Notes: generated by a model not told the origin, from the sequence alone. Numbered from the stretch's first letter, positions 34,166-39,747 are shown. The stretch: DNA of 64,000 nt from Bacteroidales bacterium (GCA_021738565.1 JAIPBT010000012.1:36843-100842), one strand, 5' to 3'. Made by a program: numbers and translations.

Positions 34166-35026
34166 TCAGTTCAGCAGTCCGGTATAATTTTCCTCCTGTC
34201 GCATTTCCAGATCCTTACGCATACCGATCATTTTAACCGGCAGGCAGATCGTTATTCCCATTCGTTTAAGATCGGGGTTATTCAGGCTGACTGTTCCACC
34301 CATTTGACGGACCATGTCCCTTGTCAGTTTAAAAGCTATGCCGGTATTATCTAAATAATTATACCAATCATTCCCGTTAACCGTATTTTCAAAGATCATT
34401 TTTGCCCTCTCCTCGAGCAATTCATTTTTGTCGCTCACAATGGTTATATGTGCCTCCTTTTCTTCAGCGATTCTCAACCTCAATTCCACTACTCCCTTCT
34501 GCTGGTTTGTCATTGCATTGATAACCAGGCTTTCCAGTATTCGCTGAAGGCGGAATCCATCGGTTTCAACGACGATCCGCTTGTACATCCATGGCAGCGT
34601 GAGCAACAGCACTGCAGAATATCGCAATTCTCTGATTGAATGTATATGGTTCTTCTGATAGATCACCTTCAGGAGATCATCAACAAACACCGTTTCCTTG
34701 CTGAAAGTCAGGTTATTTGTTTCCAGCAATGCAAAATCAATGATGTTGTCGACCACTTTCAGAAGCATATTGCTGTTCAGGGAGATATACTCAATGTACT
34801 CATCCCTTTCATTCTCAGAGATATTCTCACTCTTCAGCAGGTCCGAGAATCCCAGGATTGCATTCATTGGTGTCCTGATCTCATGCGAAACATTGGAAAG
34901 AAACCTGGTTTTGACCTGGGAGCCTGCATCCTTGTTTGCATGGTAGATCCCTTCCAGCCACCTTACCTTTTCCATCAGCATTTGATTCACCGATTTCAAT
35001 TCCTCGTATGTGGGTTTTTCATTCAT
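34166..35026 (-). CDS. Sensor-less histidine kinase-like protein (HisKA plus degenerate HATPase)
   Basis: MNEKPTYEEL coiled N-terminus, FLSNVSHEIRTPMNAILGFSDLL H-box; G1 box replaced by SDKNE, G2 replaced by NTGIAF. Confidence 0.8.
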   Translation of the reverse strand: MNEKPTYEELKSVNQMLMEKVRWLEGIYHANKDAGSQVKTRFLSNVSHEIRTPMNAILGFSDLLKSENISENERDEYIEYISLNSNMLLKVVDNIIDFALLETNNLTFSKETVFVDDLLKVIYQKNHIHSIRELRYSAVLLLTLPWMYKRIVVETDGFRLQRILESLVINAMTNQQKGVVELRLRIAEEKEAHITIVSDKNELLEERAKMIFENTVNGNDWYNYLDNTGIAFKLTRDMVRQMGGTVSLNNPDLKRMGITICLPVKMIGMRKDLEMRQEENYTGLLN

Positions 35027-35056: not shown

Positions 35057-35809
35057 TTAATTTTTGAGTTTTCTCAGCAATTTTCTTGCCGCTCTCTTTT
35101 TATCACTGTTACTGGATGCAATCCTGGCAAATTGTCTCCGCGCCCTTTCAGTATCATTCGTTGCCAGGTAGCACAATCCAAGGTACCATTCAGCCTGCTC
35201 AACATACAGGTTATCATTGTGTTCGATAACCTTGTTGAAAGAAATTCCTGCATCGGTATACCTGTTCATCTCAAAATATGAGATACCAGTATACAGGTTG
35301 GTTGCCACCTGGTCGGGATGCTGCTCGAGCACCTTTTCAAAATAAACAACGGCTTCAGCAAATTCGCCATCCAGGTACAATCGCTCAGCATGCTGAAGCA
35401 TCAGCTCCAGTTCCGTGTCGTTCGACCTGTTAATGAGCGCAACCTCATATGGCTTGTAATATTTTTTAAGCAGATCCTTGTTCGAAATGGGCCTGTCTAA
35501 AAAAGATGCCATCCCAATGGCAAGGATCAGGGCAATAGCTGCAGTGGCAGCATAGTGCCAGGGTTTTGTAAAGCGTATGGGCAATCTTGAATTGCCACTG
35601 CTCTGTTTGGTCTCTTTTCGCAGATCCCTGAGTTGATCTCTGAAATTCAATACTTCAGTATCAGCAAGTGCCTCATCGACTTCCCTGTAAAGTACCAGTT
35701 CTGCCTGTAATTCGGGACTTGTCTCCAGGTCTGCTTCGAACCTCTTCATTTCCTTTTCTGAAAGGTCATGATCGAGGTACATCTGGATCATGTACTTGTC
35801 TCGTTTCAT
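35057..35809 (-). CDS. Putative anti-sigma factor: N-terminal ASD-like helices, one TM helix, C-terminal TPR domain
   Basis: IQMYLDHDLSEKEMKRFEADL N-terminus, TM WHYAATAAIALILAIGMASFL, TPR helices ending EQAEWYLGLCYL. Confidence 0.75.
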   Translation of the reverse strand: MKRDKYMIQMYLDHDLSEKEMKRFEADLETSPELQAELVLYREVDEALADTEVLNFRDQLRDLRKETKQSSGNSRLPIRFTKPWHYAATAAIALILAIGMASFLDRPISNKDLLKKYYKPYEVALINRSNDTELELMLQHAERLYLDGEFAEAVVYFEKVLEQHPDQVATNLYTGISYFEMNRYTDAGISFNKVIEHNDNLYVEQAEWYLGLCYLATNDTERARRQFARIASSNSDKKRAARKLLRKLKN

Positions 35810-36013
35810 ATGATTATGTAAATAAATTTTCCATGTAAATTCATCTAGAACTACACATCCATCAGATCACACTGATCCACAGATGTATTTATGTATTGCC
35901 ATGCTGAAATAATTCAGCTCAGCGTACCATTTTCATTACTTAGTTCAGTTCGGGCGTTCCCAAATAAGGTATTTACAAGGTATTTAAATCTCTTTTCGGA
36001 TTGTCCCGCAAGA

Positions 36014-36157
36014 TTAGTTGCCATCATCGGTAGCTCCGCCGGGAGGTACTAATAAGTCCGTTGGTTGATCAGAACCTCCTCCTTTTAAAAAATTCATCTC
36101 TACCATGGTCATTGCATCCGTTGCAAAATTGTCGATTGTGAATTGTAAAGTTTTCAT
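36014..36157 (-). CDS. 47-aa double-glycine-leader peptide precursor, absent from the ORF track: MKTLQFTIDNFATDAMTMVEMNFLKGG-GSDQPTDLLVPPGGATDDGN
   Basis: Manual translation, ATG at 36157 to TAA at 36016-36014; MTMVEMNFLKGG fits the (L/M)(S/T)xxE(L/M)xx(I/L)xGG leader consensus; A-rich Bacteroidota-type leader AACCCTAATTACAAACGAC. Confidence 0.8.
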   Translation of the reverse strand: MKTLQFTIDNFATDAMTMVEMNFLKGGGSDQPTDLLVPPGGATDDGN

Positions 36158-36204
36158 GTCGTTTGTAATTAGGGTTTAACATATTTGTTGATCGTTCAAC
36201 CCTT

Positions 36205-36232
36205 TATTCCCAAAAACATGGAAACGTTACCC
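36205..36232 (-). promoter_or_regulatory. Candidate ECF-sigma promoter for the peptide/anti-sigma/kinase operon
   Basis: Minus strand GGGTAAC-N15-GGAATA; AAC-containing -35 typical of ECF promoters, preceded by a T-tract. Confidence 0.4.
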
Positions 36233-36372
36233 AAAAAAAATAAAAAATTTTCATTTTATTTTTAATAGCTTAATAATCAAATATTTAATTATATATTTTT
36301 TAATGAAAAAAATGATATATTTTGGAATCTATACTTGTTTTTATTTCATTTACATTGTATATATAGAATATA

Positions 36373-39165
36373 ATGAAAATAGTTTCAATATTCCTGTCAT
36401 TTTTTCTTATCCATTATTTTTTCTCTGCTCACGGGCAAATTGAGAAATCAACACCTGAGCAAAAAATTAATTCCCTGAGTCAAAAGGCATGGGATTATTT
36501 TTATCAAGGCAAGTATGATAGTGCTGAATATTTTTATCAAAACACTATCAACTTACAAGAAGCTTATTTTGGGCATTATGATAATCATACAGCTGGAACA
36601 TATTTAAATTTAGGAGCAGTATATAGAAGACTTTATCATTTGAAAGATGCACTGAAGTATTTAAATATTGCTGAGGCTATTTTTAAGCAGACTAGTCCAG
36701 ATACCTACTTATTGGGATATATTTATAATAATAAAGGAAACATCTATTATACTTATTCTGATTATGGCGAAAGCGAAAGGTATTACAAACAAAGTCTTAA
36801 TCAGCTAATTAGAACACAACAATATAATAATGACATATTTGAAATAGTATATTTAAACCTATTTAATCTTCTAATAACCCAAAATCGTTTAGAGGAAGCT
36901 GAGACTTTAATTGAGGAAATTAAAGAGATTGAAGTAATTGGAAAAAATTCATATTCCAAAAACAAATATTTAGCTCAAGCATATGATATATTAGGCCATA
37001 ATGAATTAGCTCTAATCGAAATTAGTAAAGGTAAAGCGAAATTAGCATCGGATAAAAATTCAAGCCCTCATGACTTAATAGAATTTAATTTTAGAGAAGC
37101 ATCTGTACATTTAAAATTAAATAATCTTTCCAAAGCATTAGAGCTTTCTCTTGATAATATTGGTTTGTTCCAAAATATTAAGACAATTGATTATCAGAAA
37201 TTGGCAGACACATATTGGTTAGTAGGTAATATTTATTTTATTAAAGAAGAGTATCGGAATTGTTACGATTGGTTATCAAATGTTATTAATGAGTTAAATG
37301 AGGCACTAAAGAATTCAGATATTACTCAAATAGACCCTACCTCCCGCATTTTGAAAAGTTTTTTTGTGGATCTAAATCACTTACAAGCTCAAACTTGTGT
37401 TGCTCTCCATGAAGAAACTGGAAATAATAAATATTTAGAACAGTCACTCAAATTATATACTGAGATTATAGAAGTATTAAAGATCTTTAAAATTCATATG
37501 AGGAATGACAAAAGCAAATTTAGTAACACAGAAAATAGATTATCATTAATTCATGAAGCAACCAATGTTGCATTGCAACTATATGAAACTAGTAAACAGG
37601 AAAAATATTTTAATAAGGCATTTAATTATGCAGAGAATTCCAAGTCATTTATTTTATTATCTCAAATAAAAGAAGTTGAAGCTATTCAATTTGCTGAATT
37701 ACCAAAGAAAATACTCGATAGAGAAACAAATTTATCTGGTGAAATATCAGGTTATGAAGAATTAATTTTTGAAGAAAATATTAGTCTTGAACCAGATAGT
37801 CTTAAACTAGCTACTTTGACCAATAAGTTATTTGAGCTTAAAGATGATTATAATGCATTACTAGACTCAATTGAGTTATTATATCCCAACTATTTTGAAC
37901 TGAAATACAATCCCCATTTTATAACGCCATCGGAGGCACAGTTCAGACTTCACAGGCATGAGGCACTTGTGGAATACTTACTTTCAGATTCCATACTCAC
38001 CACGTTTGTTATAGACAAGGAGCAGATTGAAGCGTTCCAGCAGCGGCTGCCCGAAGGTTTTTCAAAGAAGTGCATCGACTATTTCACATTGATCCGTGAC
38101 CAGAATTTCAGTCAGGATGTACACCAGACATACAGGGATTTTGTTCGGCTCAGCAGGATGTTCCACGAGATCCTGGTTGCACCTGTACTGGAATTAACGG
38201 AAAGCAGGGAGATCACTTTTGTCCCCGACGGCGCCATCATGTACCTGCCGTTTGAAGCTTTTCTCACCGCGGATGTCGATGAGGAGTACATTGATTACCA
38301 TTCCCTTCCTTACCTGATCCACGATGTATCGGTAGGTTATTCATATTCTTCAACCCTGCTCTTCAATAAGAGGTTCAAAACAGGATCCCCGGAGCGGAAG
38401 GTACTGGCTTTTGCCCCATCCTATAACAACCTTCTTGGTGAAGATCCGCTCGAATGGGACAGGCAAAGCAACCCGGATTTTCTGGTACCATTGCAGGGTG
38501 CTGTAGAAGAGGTGGAGTACATTTCAAAAAGGGTCCCCTCGGTAGCATTTATGGATTCAATGGCCTCCGAAGCGAATTTCAAAAAGCATGCATCCGATTA
38601 TTACGTGTTGCACCTGGCCATGCATACCATATTGAATGACCAGGAACCGATGTATTCCAGGCTTGCATTTACCAGGAACTTTAATGACACAACGGAAGAT
38701 CACGATCTGTTTACATACGAGATCTACAATATGCAGCTCAATGCCGATATGGTGGTCCTGAGCTCCTGCAACAGCGGGTATGGCAAGATGCAGAAAGGGG
38801 AAGGAATGATGAGCATGGCAAGGGGTTTTATTTATGCCGGCTGTCCAAGCATTATCATGACCCTCTGGCAGGTTTCCGACAGGTCAAGCTCGGAACTCAT
38901 GAGCAATTTCTACAAGCACCTGAAAAAAGGCAAGAGCAAAAAAAGTGCATTAAGGCAGGCAAAAATTGATTACATCAGGGCATCGGACAATTTGAAATCC
39001 AATCCCTATTTCTGGTCCTCCTTCCTTGTAGTTGGCGATAACTCTCCCCTGTACATGACATCGGCGGGTTGGTACCTTGCAATGATCATTCTGGCGTTCC
39101 TGATCGTGGTATTGCTTGCAACCTATAAAAAACAGATCCGCAAAAAACTTAAAAAATTCAGATAG
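36373..39165 (+). CDS. TPR-CHAT (caspase/HetF-associated, clan CD) protease with signal peptide and C-terminal membrane anchor
   Basis: Signal MKIVSIFLSFFLIHYFFSAHG; TPR helices; FVPDG, LPFEAF, AFAP, LHLAMH (His at about 38623), VVLSSCNSG (Cys at 38767), MTLWQVSD, PYFWSSF; TM WYLAMIILAFLIVVLLATY followed by basic tail. Confidence 0.92.
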   Translation: MKIVSIFLSFFLIHYFFSAHGQIEKSTPEQKINSLSQKAWDYFYQGKYDSAEYFYQNTINLQEAYFGHYDNHTAGTYLNLGAVYRRLYHLKDALKYLNIAEAIFKQTSPDTYLLGYIYNNKGNIYYTYSDYGESERYYKQSLNQLIRTQQYNNDIFEIVYLNLFNLLITQNRLEEAETLIEEIKEIEVIGKNSYSKNKYLAQAYDILGHNELALIEISKGKAKLASDKNSSPHDLIEFNFREASVHLKLNNLSKALELSLDNIGLFQNIKTIDYQKLADTYWLVGNIYFIKEEYRNCYDWLSNVINELNEALKNSDITQIDPTSRILKSFFVDLNHLQAQTCVALHEETGNNKYLEQSLKLYTEIIEVLKIFKIHMRNDKSKFSNTENRLSLIHEATNVALQLYETSKQEKYFNKAFNYAENSKSFILLSQIKEVEAIQFAELPKKILDRETNLSGEISGYEELIFEENISLEPDSLKLATLTNKLFELKDDYNALLDSIELLYPNYFELKYNPHFITPSEAQFRLHRHEALVEYLLSDSILTTFVIDKEQIEAFQQRLPEGFSKKCIDYFTLIRDQNFSQDVHQTYRDFVRLSRMFHEILVAPVLELTESREITFVPDGAIMYLPFEAFLTADVDEEYIDYHSLPYLIHDVSVGYSYSSTLLFNKRFKTGSPERKVLAFAPSYNNLLGEDPLEWDRQSNPDFLVPLQGAVEEVEYISKRVPSVAFMDSMASEANFKKHASDYYVLHLAMHTILNDQEPMYSRLAFTRNFNDTTEDHDLFTYEIYNMQLNADMVVLSSCNSGYGKMQKGEGMMSMARGFIYAGCPSIIMTLWQVSDRSSSELMSNFYKHLKKGKSKKSALRQAKIDYIRASDNLKSNPYFWSSFLVVGDNSPLYMTSAGWYLAMIILAFLIVVLLATYKKQIRKKLKKFR

Positions 39166-39168
39166 TAT

Positions 39169-39747
39169 TTATTCTTCCATCATATCACGGTAATCCTGGT
39201 CCTCCCTGATCCTGTTGATAAGGTACTCTTTGCAGAAATGCCTTCTCTTCCTGACATACGTATCGCTCCGGAAACCCAATTGCTCTGCTATCTCCCTGGC
39301 AGACAAATCCTGGACAGTAAGTTTTAGTATTTCCTGGCAATCCCCGGGAATCAGTTTTAAATTTCGCTGGTACACTGCAAGACGCAGGTCCTTGTCCTGC
39401 ACAGGCGGGGGTTCCTCAAATTCAATGAAATCCTCCATCTCCCTGTCAAGCCTGCCAACCTCCATTTTGCGGGAATCCCTTAATTTCTTTAACAACAACA
39501 ACCGGTTTATGGAATACAAATAGGTGGAAAAAGTGCTGGTAAGCTGAAATTCCTTCTCCTCACGAATCCGTTTGAAAATTATGATGAGGGATTCCTGGAA
39601 AATATCTTCTGCATCGTCTTCACTGCAACTGTTTGAAAGCACCATCCTGCTTACCCTGTCGAAATTGGTCGAATAGATGAAGTGGATTACATGGTTGTCT
39701 CTCCTGCGGAGACCATGGATTATCTCTTCATCGGAAAACCTCTTCAT
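39169..39747 (-). CDS. ECF-type sigma-70 factor
   Basis: Region 2 DAEDIFQE...FSTYLYSI, region 4 LSAREIAEQLGF; 192 aa. Confidence 0.9.
   Translation of the reverse strand: MKRFSDEEIIHGLRRRDNHVIHFIYSTNFDRVSRMVLSNSCSEDDAEDIFQESLIIIFKRIREEKEFQLTSTFSTYLYSINRLLLLKKLRDSRKMEVGRLDREMEDFIEFEEPPPVQDKDLRLAVYQRNLKLIPGDCQEILKLTVQDLSAREIAEQLGFRSDTYVRKRRHFCKEYLINRIREDQDYRDMMEE

Follow-up and report, generated by a model that had tools for sequence, protein, structure and literature searches.

In a 64,000-nucleotide stretch of a Bacteroidales bacterium genome (GCA_021738565.1 JAIPBT010000012.1:36843-100842; hereafter the window, with positions counted from its first letter), a 47-codon gene on the minus strand (36014..36157, including the stop codon) encodes the precursor of a short acidic peptide with a double-glycine (GG) leader. 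We consider it fairly probable that this peptide is a signal rather than an antibiotic: its gene would be driven by a neighbouring extracytoplasmic function (ECF) sigma factor, and the peptide, exported and unmodified, would be sensed by a module composed of a tetratricopeptide repeat (TPR)-CHAT protease and an anti-sigma-like membrane protein. An earlier note on the same DNA had already favoured a signalling peptide over a cationic bacteriocin, but overlooked the CHAT, ECF, anti-sigma-like and kinase-like neighbours. The function that it proposed gains support from precisely these companions, from a promoter-like motif that the peptide gene has in common with ECF genes and from the modelled docking of the peptide in the TPR groove of the protease.

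A conserved gene for a double-glycine peptide

The open reading frame (ORF) reported in the earlier note was recovered residue for residue together with its stop codon, and lies on the minus strand, which the note had not given. Codons 1-27 (36077-36157, minus) form the leader, which ends in Gly26-Gly27 with the sequence E-M-N-F-L-K-G-G, in agreement with the ExxxLKGG ending described before. Codons 28-47 (36017-36076, minus) form the core, whose 20 residues are, as claimed, acidic, rich in Pro and Gly and devoid of Cys (4 Asp, 4 Gly and 3 Pro; Lys and Arg are likewise absent; net charge ~ -4). Double-glycine leaders comprise ~15-30 residues ending in Gly-Gly (or Gly-Ala/Ser), with hydrophobic residues at positions -4, -7 and -12 and an acidic residue at -8. 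The window peptide conforms to this consensus in length, in its Gly-Gly end and in its hydrophobic and acidic positions, with Met at -12. Among 18 aligned orthologues, Gly-Gly (-1/-2) is invariant, position -4 is Leu, Ile or Val in all 18, position -7 is Met or Leu in all 18 (Met in 17) and position -8 is Glu in 14. A leader-like ORF is by itself weak evidence, because a loose version of the leader pattern matches 123 of the 24,948 small ORFs of this genome; the strict pattern E-[LM]-x-x-[LIV]-x-G-G retains three of them, namely the window ORF, a peptide beside an exporter gene on contig C49 and one other.

We accepted the ORF as a real gene because it is conserved in relatives. A six-frame search of 61 genomes gave 28 matches at E ≤ 1 (8 of the 12 same-genus and 24 of the 36 same-family genomes), with 17 relatives at E ≤ 0.002. 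The frame is open in every extracted orthologue and all length changes are in-frame; frameshifts or stops, which the earlier note had named as evidence against the gene, were not seen. In the alignment of the family (A1, 18 rows), F11, G26 and G27 are invariant, and K2, M21, P32, D34, P38 and P39 occur in at least 90% of the rows. Synonymous codons are used at these constant residues: the Gly-Gly pair is encoded with GGA, GGT and GGC, the core prolines with four codons and the Leu at leader position -4 with TTA, CTT and CTA, and pairwise differences in the leader at codon positions 1/2/3 amount to 532/541/869. This pattern of substitution indicates that the ORF is a genuine gene under selection at the protein level. 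The expectation of a conserved leader and a variable core held in its first half only: within the family the core also keeps a motif, P-x-D-[LMIV]-[ILV]-[IV]-P-P, followed by a variable and often acidic tail, and cores vary only between subfamilies.

The gene is single-copy in the genome. The paralogous leaders that the earlier note had suggested looking for did not appear, as the search of the genome returned only the window ORF itself, the next-best small ORF of the family search having E 0.048. A profile search of a large protein collection gave 99 candidates, 56 of which score E ≤ 0.01; the 56 are devoid of Pfam domains, and the few named ones are entries called 'hypothetical protein' from Bacteroidales metagenome-assembled genomes (MAGs). 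The exact window peptide is present in a gene-call protein collection, and its orthologues in public MAGs are likewise named 'hypothetical protein'. Neither Pfam nor NCBIfam has a model of its own for this family, no account of it emerged from the literature searched, and an Rfam scan of 35500-36700 gave no match at E ≤ 1. A search for sequencing runs returned three DNA runs from a single study and none of RNA.

Regarding the class of the peptide, Pfam and NCBIfam scans of the ten neighbouring ORFs detected no LanB/C/M, radical SAM or ATP-grasp enzyme, in line with the previous claim that the window encodes no modifying enzyme. The TIGR04148 radical SAM maturase had no match in the whole genome (98.5% complete), and no maturase-like family recurred when all ORFs from 80 CHAT loci (see below) were clustered. 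These searches also uphold the proposal that the peptide is unmodified. The features of class II bacteriocins and bacteroidetocins (a cationic or hydrophobic, membrane-active core, frequently with a Cys pair, and an adjacent immunity gene) are lacking in it, and no immunity-like gene family recurs across the 80 loci; its acidic, short and Cys-free core speaks, as anticipated, against a cationic bacteriocin.

Linkage with CHAT, ECF and anti-sigma-like genes

In the window, the peptide gene is divergent from that of a TPR-CHAT caspase-like protease (930 amino acids, 36373..39165, plus strand; PF12770 CHAT, E 4.6e-56, with TPR_12/TPR_10), which in turn is convergent with the gene of an ECF-type sigma factor (192 amino acids, 39169..39747, minus strand; TIGR02937 sigma70-ECF, 51.1 bits for a cut-off of 42.9). 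On the minus strand, the peptide gene is followed downstream by those of an anti-sigma-like membrane protein (250 amino acids, 35057..35809; NF052375, E 3.3e-07, and TPR families) and of a soluble histidine-kinase-like protein (286 amino acids, 34166..35026; HisKA, E 3.5e-16, and HATPase_c, E 2.7e-08), the latter being the last gene of a putative peptide operon.

We looked at this association from both sides. The peptide-family profile matched in 13 of 301 genomes sampled across the order; the distant matches are other short, acidic, Cys-poor GG peptides, and 7 of 10 such loci that we fetched have an adjoining CHAT gene, in differing arrangements. From the side of the protease, an 18-row CHAT alignment searched against species-representative genomes gave 575 relatives, of which the best 80 loci were kept; they were chosen by CHAT homology alone, peptides being disregarded, and many are cut by contig ends. 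GG-leader mini-ORFs were fivefold denser near the CHAT genes (78 in 378 kb at ≤3 kb from CHAT) than farther away (20 in 492 kb). A divergent GG ORF was found by pattern within 2 kb in 51 of the 58 loci having at least 600 bp upstream of CHAT, and two more, missed by the pattern, were seen by eye (L108 and L131), giving 53 of 58. The upstream sequence of the five loci without a GG ORF measures 710-1600 bp; in L109, one of the five, the CHAT gene is fragmented.

The 80 loci contain the ECF gene in 58 cases, the anti-sigma-like gene in 58 and the HisKA gene in 46. The families that they share are CHAT, ECF, anti-sigma-like, HisKA, a small LytTR protein (13 loci) and a C39-peptidase ABC (ATP-binding cassette) exporter, the remainder being lineage-specific flank. 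The peptides fall into subfamilies with strongly differing cores of 10-30 residues, acidic and mostly Cys-free, some of them repeated in tandem as 2-5 identical copies; in a sister subfamily, the cores are of the form D-D-L-W-P-P. Carriers include the cultured genera Marinifilum, Labilibaculum, Prolixibacter and Sunxiuqinia. The peptide gene is linked with the CHAT, ECF and anti-sigma genes across many lineages of Bacteroidales and Marinilabiliales.

Two further genes were noticed in these loci. A Peptidase_M64 (IgA-peptidase-like) gene occurs a few kb past the ECF gene in 20 of the 80 loci (e.g., L120:14108-15424 and L090:12539-13999) and may be either flank synteny or part of the regulon. 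In the D-D-L-W-P-P subfamily, a second, unrelated ECF gene lies past the ECF/anti-sigma pair (L110:12603-13193, L136:9245-9841 and L120:12609-13184).

A promoter-like motif common to peptide and ECF genes

Upstream of the peptide gene we found a two-block promoter-like motif, GGGTAACGTTT - 11 nt - GGAATAAA (36203..36232, minus strand), which ends ~45 nt before the ATG and is preceded by an A/T tract. It can be aligned in all 18 orthologous upstream regions and, with a strict pattern, the window copy is the only match with the full conserved motif in the 3.98-Mb genome. Subfamilies that are otherwise unrelated have variants of it, of the form GGGT-N-AC-[CG]-TTT ... GGAAT-[AT]-A, ahead of their first peptide gene. 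Searching both strands of the 80 loci (1.07 Mb) with a relaxed pattern gave 60 copies: 45 are directly upstream of a peptide gene, three in the peptide-CHAT spacer, two at the corresponding place in loci where the peptide pattern failed, and six immediately before the ECF gene, in four loci of Marinifilum and two of Labilibaculum. Autoregulated ECF promoters are usually recognised by such a motif, present both at the sigma factor's own gene and at a neighbour gene. Since ECF and peptide genes have this motif in common, we infer that the peptide gene is transcribed with the ECF sigma factor, and control of the gene through this candidate promoter appears likely from the distribution of the motif. 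In trees of the ECF and anti-sigma proteins (FastTree, midpoint-rooted, support values not inspected), the sigma factor of the window groups within a clade of cluster-linked ECF genes.

Between motif and start codon, a second conserved element, AACCC(C)TAATT (~36170-36185, minus strand; 15-25 nt upstream of the ATG), is shared by the window's family with the sister groups closest to it and could be a 5'-untranslated region (UTR) or translation signal. A candidate 5'-UTR hairpin of the window, AGGGTT...AACCCT, was dropped: it is not preserved in those relatives in which its first arm is missing.

Predicted docking of the peptide on the CHAT protein

The CHAT protein has a hydrophobic N-terminal signal or anchor and a C-terminal transmembrane (TM) helix (modelled helices 2-21 and 899-929) and, therefore, its body is predicted to be periplasmic. 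Residues His747, His751 and Cys799 are invariant in 38 homologues. The AlphaFold2 model of the protein (predicted local distance difference test, pLDDT, 86.2; predicted template modelling score 0.81) has its best counterparts among PDB folds in Csx29/craspase (8eey_B, E 2.8e-16) and separase, with the Myxococcus anti-sigma protein DdvA (8rot, E 6.7e-14) at rank 13. Residues 31-148 resemble the TPR of kinesin light chain (KLC1, E 7.3e-08). Kinesin light chain TPRs bind short acidic cargo peptides containing Trp or Tyr. The modelled ligand of the CHAT TPRs is also a short acidic peptide, and the cores of the sister subfamily read D-D-L-W-P-P, although the likeness with kinesin light chain covers the repeat scaffold only.

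We predicted the complex of CHAT residues 25-895 with peptide residues 18-47, as one pair. It scored 0.76 (runs 0.77, 0.76 and 0.75) as compared with 0.19 for the best control; the mark used for this score had been attained with 58 of 80 solved complexes and with 2 of 110 mismatched pairs. At least 86% of the contacts are common to the runs. The contacts of lowest error join peptide residues 32-37, that is, the conserved core, to CHAT residues 78-86, 115-127 and 158-162, on the concave surface of a TPR groove with an Asn ladder; confident contacts extend up to residue 392 and leave the catalytic His/Cys region (747-799) untouched. One contact residue, N120, is kept in 32 of the 38 CHAT homologues, the other contact positions being variable. 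Judging from these models, there is a reasonable likelihood that the core peptide binds the TPR groove of the CHAT protein.

The anti-sigma-like protein consists of an N-terminal helical domain, one TM segment and a TPR domain predicted to be periplasmic. Across 22 members of its family (alignment A3), a juxtamembrane segment Y-Y-K-P-Y-E-V is conserved, and the gene of a family member overlaps that of the ECF factor in related clusters. The window protein, with no Cys among its N-terminal 70 residues and H14 as their only His, cannot form a CHCC zinc centre of the kind found in the sigma-binding anti-sigma domain of DdvA-type switches. In the 46 cluster homologues of the histidine-kinase-like protein, which has no TM segment, the H-box is conserved and the N, G1 and G2 ATP-binding boxes are not; from these motifs, it may be a pseudokinase or a phosphotransfer protein. 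Four relatives (L035, L036, L038 and L049) have 500-700 bp of extra DNA, of shared sequence, between the peptide and anti-sigma genes; one reading frame recurs there in three loci, and the segment may be an inserted repeat element. No conserved peptide ORF was found in it.

The exporter

The genome contains two matches to the C39 peptidase domain (PF03412; 127.8 and 121.8 bits for a cut-off of 22), on contigs C49 and C72, and the window, which belongs to contig C1, contains none. This is what the earlier note had proposed, namely a peptidase-containing ABC transporter (PCAT) encoded elsewhere; the complete lack of such exporters, which it had considered damaging to its proposal, does not apply to this genome. 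Among the 80 CHAT loci, 6 have a PCAT gene within the cluster, as do 2 of the 10 loci fetched with the peptide profile (L070 and L071), and the order of a full cluster is peptide, anti-sigma-like, HisKA, LytTR, PCAT, (PD-(D/E)XK) and HlyD. The LytTR protein of these full clusters has 117 amino acids, and Pfam reports in it the LytTR domain alone. Over 727 residues, the C72 transporter is 56% identical to the PCAT of a full cluster, with which it shares the catalytic motifs D-C-G-P-x-C and H-W..N-H-F, including the catalytic Cys; the C49 transporter is 30% identical. The PCATs of loci L070 and L071 are 52-54% identical to that of C72.

The C72 PCAT gene is located directly behind genes for an ECF paralogue (30% identity, E 1e-27) and an anti-sigma/TM/TPR paralogue (operon at L051:6627-10279), with no adjoining HlyD gene; the HlyD protein of the full cluster has a 40%-identical homologue on the same contig. 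C39 domains are present in 35 of the 36 same-family genomes. By its identity and catalytic motifs, the C72 transporter represents an exporter of the cognate type in this genome, and we regard cleavage of the leader and export of the peptide as quite probable on these sequence grounds. Transporters of the C72 type are the kind found in almost every genome of the family. We also considered whether the C72 operon might be the second sigma/anti-sigma pair of the canonical cluster, moved to another site, and rejected this, its ECF and anti-sigma proteins being placed outside the cluster-linked clades in the trees mentioned above.

A putative peptide-sensing loop and its alternatives

These elements can be arranged in a model. 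The neighbouring ECF sigma factor would transcribe the peptide gene from the two-block motif, probably together with the downstream anti-sigma-like and kinase-like genes. A C39-peptidase ABC exporter, which in this organism would be the one on the other contig behind the paralogous sigma/anti-sigma pair, would cut the precursor after Gly26-Gly27 and export the peptide. The mature acidic peptide would then dock, through its P-x-D-hydrophobic3-P-P core, on the CHAT protease, in the TPR groove of this periplasmic and membrane-anchored protein. Docking would alter the activity of the protease towards the anti-sigma-like TM-TPR protein, and the altered proteolysis of the latter would set the level of free sigma factor, closing a self-inducing loop. 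The last steps are the most speculative. That the CHAT protease acts on the anti-sigma-like protein in a positive loop is a tentative proposal, made by analogy with DdvA, to which we would give somewhat less than an even chance. Slightly more doubtful still, and also conceivable by analogy, is a full peptide autoinduction system in Bacteroidia, with the CHAT protein as a signal-gated site-1 protease of the anti-sigma factor and the freed ECF factor transcribing the peptide gene. If this were true, the receptor would be of a type not known from any quorum-sensing system, and the numerous peptide subfamilies, together with the TPR variants that match them, would serve as private channels (pherotypes).

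Several observations weigh against the model. Concerning the topology, export through PCAT, HlyD and the outer membrane would oblige the peptide to re-enter the periplasm. The C72 exporter is unlinked to the peptide gene and lies ~58 kb from the sole HlyD-type homologue, and the query used found no LytTR gene in this genome. Linkage within the window's own family says little because the entire region is syntenic, including the housekeeping genes MnmC2, FKBP, DUF3127 and MscS, so that the argument rests on the distant loci. The anti-sigma-like protein scores 30.5 bits against NF052375, below its cut-off of 100 bits. The ECF gene of the window has no copy of the motif, the copies upstream of ECF genes are limited to two genera, and the motif is assigned to the sigma factor by inference. 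As for the docking, the alignments used for the complex were shallow (38 and 18 rows) and self-built, the modelled peptide chain included ten leader residues that the mature form would lack, and its pLDDT in the complex is only 61-63; moreover, TPR-peptide complexes are common in the PDB and, therefore, the high score may partly reflect likeness to them.

The strongest alternative, which we nevertheless find unlikely, is that the sigma regulon has the peptide as its output and not as its input, either as a secreted effector (a narrow-spectrum antimicrobial, or an anti-phage or anti-predator agent) or as a signal that other cells perceive with a different receptor; the CHAT/anti-sigma module would then sense something else. 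A sigma-type motif before the peptide gene fits an output equally well, the strong differences between the cores of the subfamilies and the 2-5 identical tandem copies of some genera are bacteriocin-like, and the same genome has a classical cluster of GG peptides, PCAT and HlyD. In addition, the signal of DdvA is thought to be foreign (PMC11506125). However, the cores, at 10-30 residues, acidic and mostly Cys-free, are neither amphipathic nor cationic, no immunity-like gene recurs, the core motif is conserved across genera within a subfamily, and the modelled docking of exactly this conserved motif in the CHAT TPR groove would have to be a coincidence.

It is quite improbable, in our opinion, that the peptide acts as a negative element, being a securin-like pseudosubstrate, or even a true substrate, of the CHAT protease. 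This idea draws on the match between the CHAT fold and separase, a protease regulated by the pseudosubstrate securin (PMC11506125), on the invariant Asp of the core and on the very fact that the peptide could be modelled on the CHAT protein. Yet the confident contacts are in the N-terminal TPR groove, away from His/Cys 747-799, and a P1 preference is unreadable from the sequence.

Still less credible is a precursor of a ribosomally synthesized peptide that is modified post-translationally (RiPP) of the Bacteroidota GG family (TIGR04149-like) whose modifying enzyme would be encoded elsewhere. As many as 12 of the 18 members of the peptide family do match the TIGR04149 leader model (25-bit cut-off) at E ≤ 10, weakly and with a best value of 9.9e-05, but the window peptide gave no match at E ≤ 10, and the six frames of its genome gave none. 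The likeness with these precursors (GG_sam_targ_CFB) is one of leader style and limited to the leader, the distant matches of the peptide-family profile spanning its positions 1-33; the window peptide differs from them in its Cys-free core, in its gene context and in having neither the TIGR04148 maturase in its nearly complete genome nor any other enzyme family recurring in the 80 loci. Finally, a chance ORF or the trace of a non-coding element, for which the abundance of loose leader-like small ORFs could be invoked, is scarcely believable given the conserved frame with in-frame indels, the synonymous variation at invariant residues, the third-position excess and the absence of an Rfam match.

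Comparison with known systems

The closest characterised counterpart of the signalling module proposed here is DdvS/DdvA, in which a periplasmic TPR-CHAT domain has been proposed as the site-1 protease that clips the anti-sigma factor ahead of RseP, the trigger being unknown and thought to be foreign; its authors encountered DdvA-like fusions in Myxococcota and one Comamonas only (PMC11506125). Both systems have an ECF sigma factor, a single-pass anti-sigma or anti-sigma-like protein and a predicted periplasmic TPR-CHAT protein with a His-Cys dyad, in keeping with the match to the 8rot fold. In contrast with DdvA, the anti-sigma-like and TPR-CHAT proteins of the window are encoded by two genes, the CHAT protein having its own C-terminal anchor; because of this separation, we consider the module DdvA-like in its working but not a member of that family. 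The window cluster also adds the GG-leader peptide, the kinase-like gene and often PCAT, HlyD and LytTR, and no regulon of cyclic-oligonucleotide-based antiphage signalling (CBASS) or CRISPR (clustered regularly interspaced short palindromic repeats) genes is evident in it. By this analogy, the block can be described as a split relative of the DdvS/DdvA switch with a self-encoded candidate ligand.

As is proposed for the window protease, the TPR-CHAT protease Csx29 of craspase is tied to a sigma-factor switch, through Csx30 and an RpoE-type sigma factor. Type III-E craspase (Csx29 + Cas7-11; PMC10028731) has the best structural match to the window protease, but it is cytoplasmic and RNA-guided, whereas the window protease is predicted to be periplasmic, is not accompanied by CRISPR genes and has a peptide as its candidate trigger.

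Double-glycine pheromone signalling is textbook knowledge for Gram-positive bacteria, where ComC/ComDE/ComAB and Blp are such systems; to our knowledge, there is hardly any record of it from Bacteroidota. The export of GG peptides by PCATs is reported to serve communication and competition (PMC7018657). The module resembles ComCDE and Blp in its GG peptide, its PCAT and HlyD-type accessory protein, the HisKA and LytTR proteins of its full clusters and a likely self-induced loop. ComCDE and Blp rely on a membrane-bound histidine kinase as receptor and on a LytTR response regulator that has a receiver domain. The module departs from them in its kinase-like protein, which is soluble and has non-conserved ATP-binding boxes, in the small LytTR protein of the related clusters, with its single reported domain, and in its hosts, which are diderm Bacteroidia; sensing is here assigned to the periplasmic TPR-CHAT/anti-sigma/ECF route. 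Our literature search returned no paper combining a CHAT protease with a double-glycine peptide or PCAT, the closest being those on DdvA/DdvS and craspase.

DdvA being the one characterised TPR-CHAT anti-sigma switch, and its trigger unknown, the present module is of interest for supplying a candidate ligand of its own, a modelled site where it would dock and a candidate promoter. The motif before the ECF genes of cultured genera and a docking model that singles out the conserved core are the elements added here. In the lineage of the window, the exporter has left the cluster and follows the paralogous ECF and anti-sigma genes. Because the module occurs in cultured, harmless marine and sediment genera, it is directly testable whether a caspase-like protease gated by a peptide controls a sigma factor. 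A practical corollary is that many 'hypothetical' or uncalled mini-ORFs beside CHAT genes are real genes.

The window peptide has the GG leader, and probably the export by a PCAT, in common with bacteroidetocins and class II bacteriocins in Bacteroidota; these toxins are longer and akin to class IIa bacteriocins (PMC6671954), whereas the window core has 20 residues and a regulatory context. The bacteriocin-type cluster of contig C49 (L050:6891-10816) encodes a PCAT, an HlyD-type protein and two GG-leader peptides with long hydrophobic cores, which look more like classical bacteriocins than the window peptide does. It also contains a hydrophobic ORF of 43 amino acids, a possible immunity protein.

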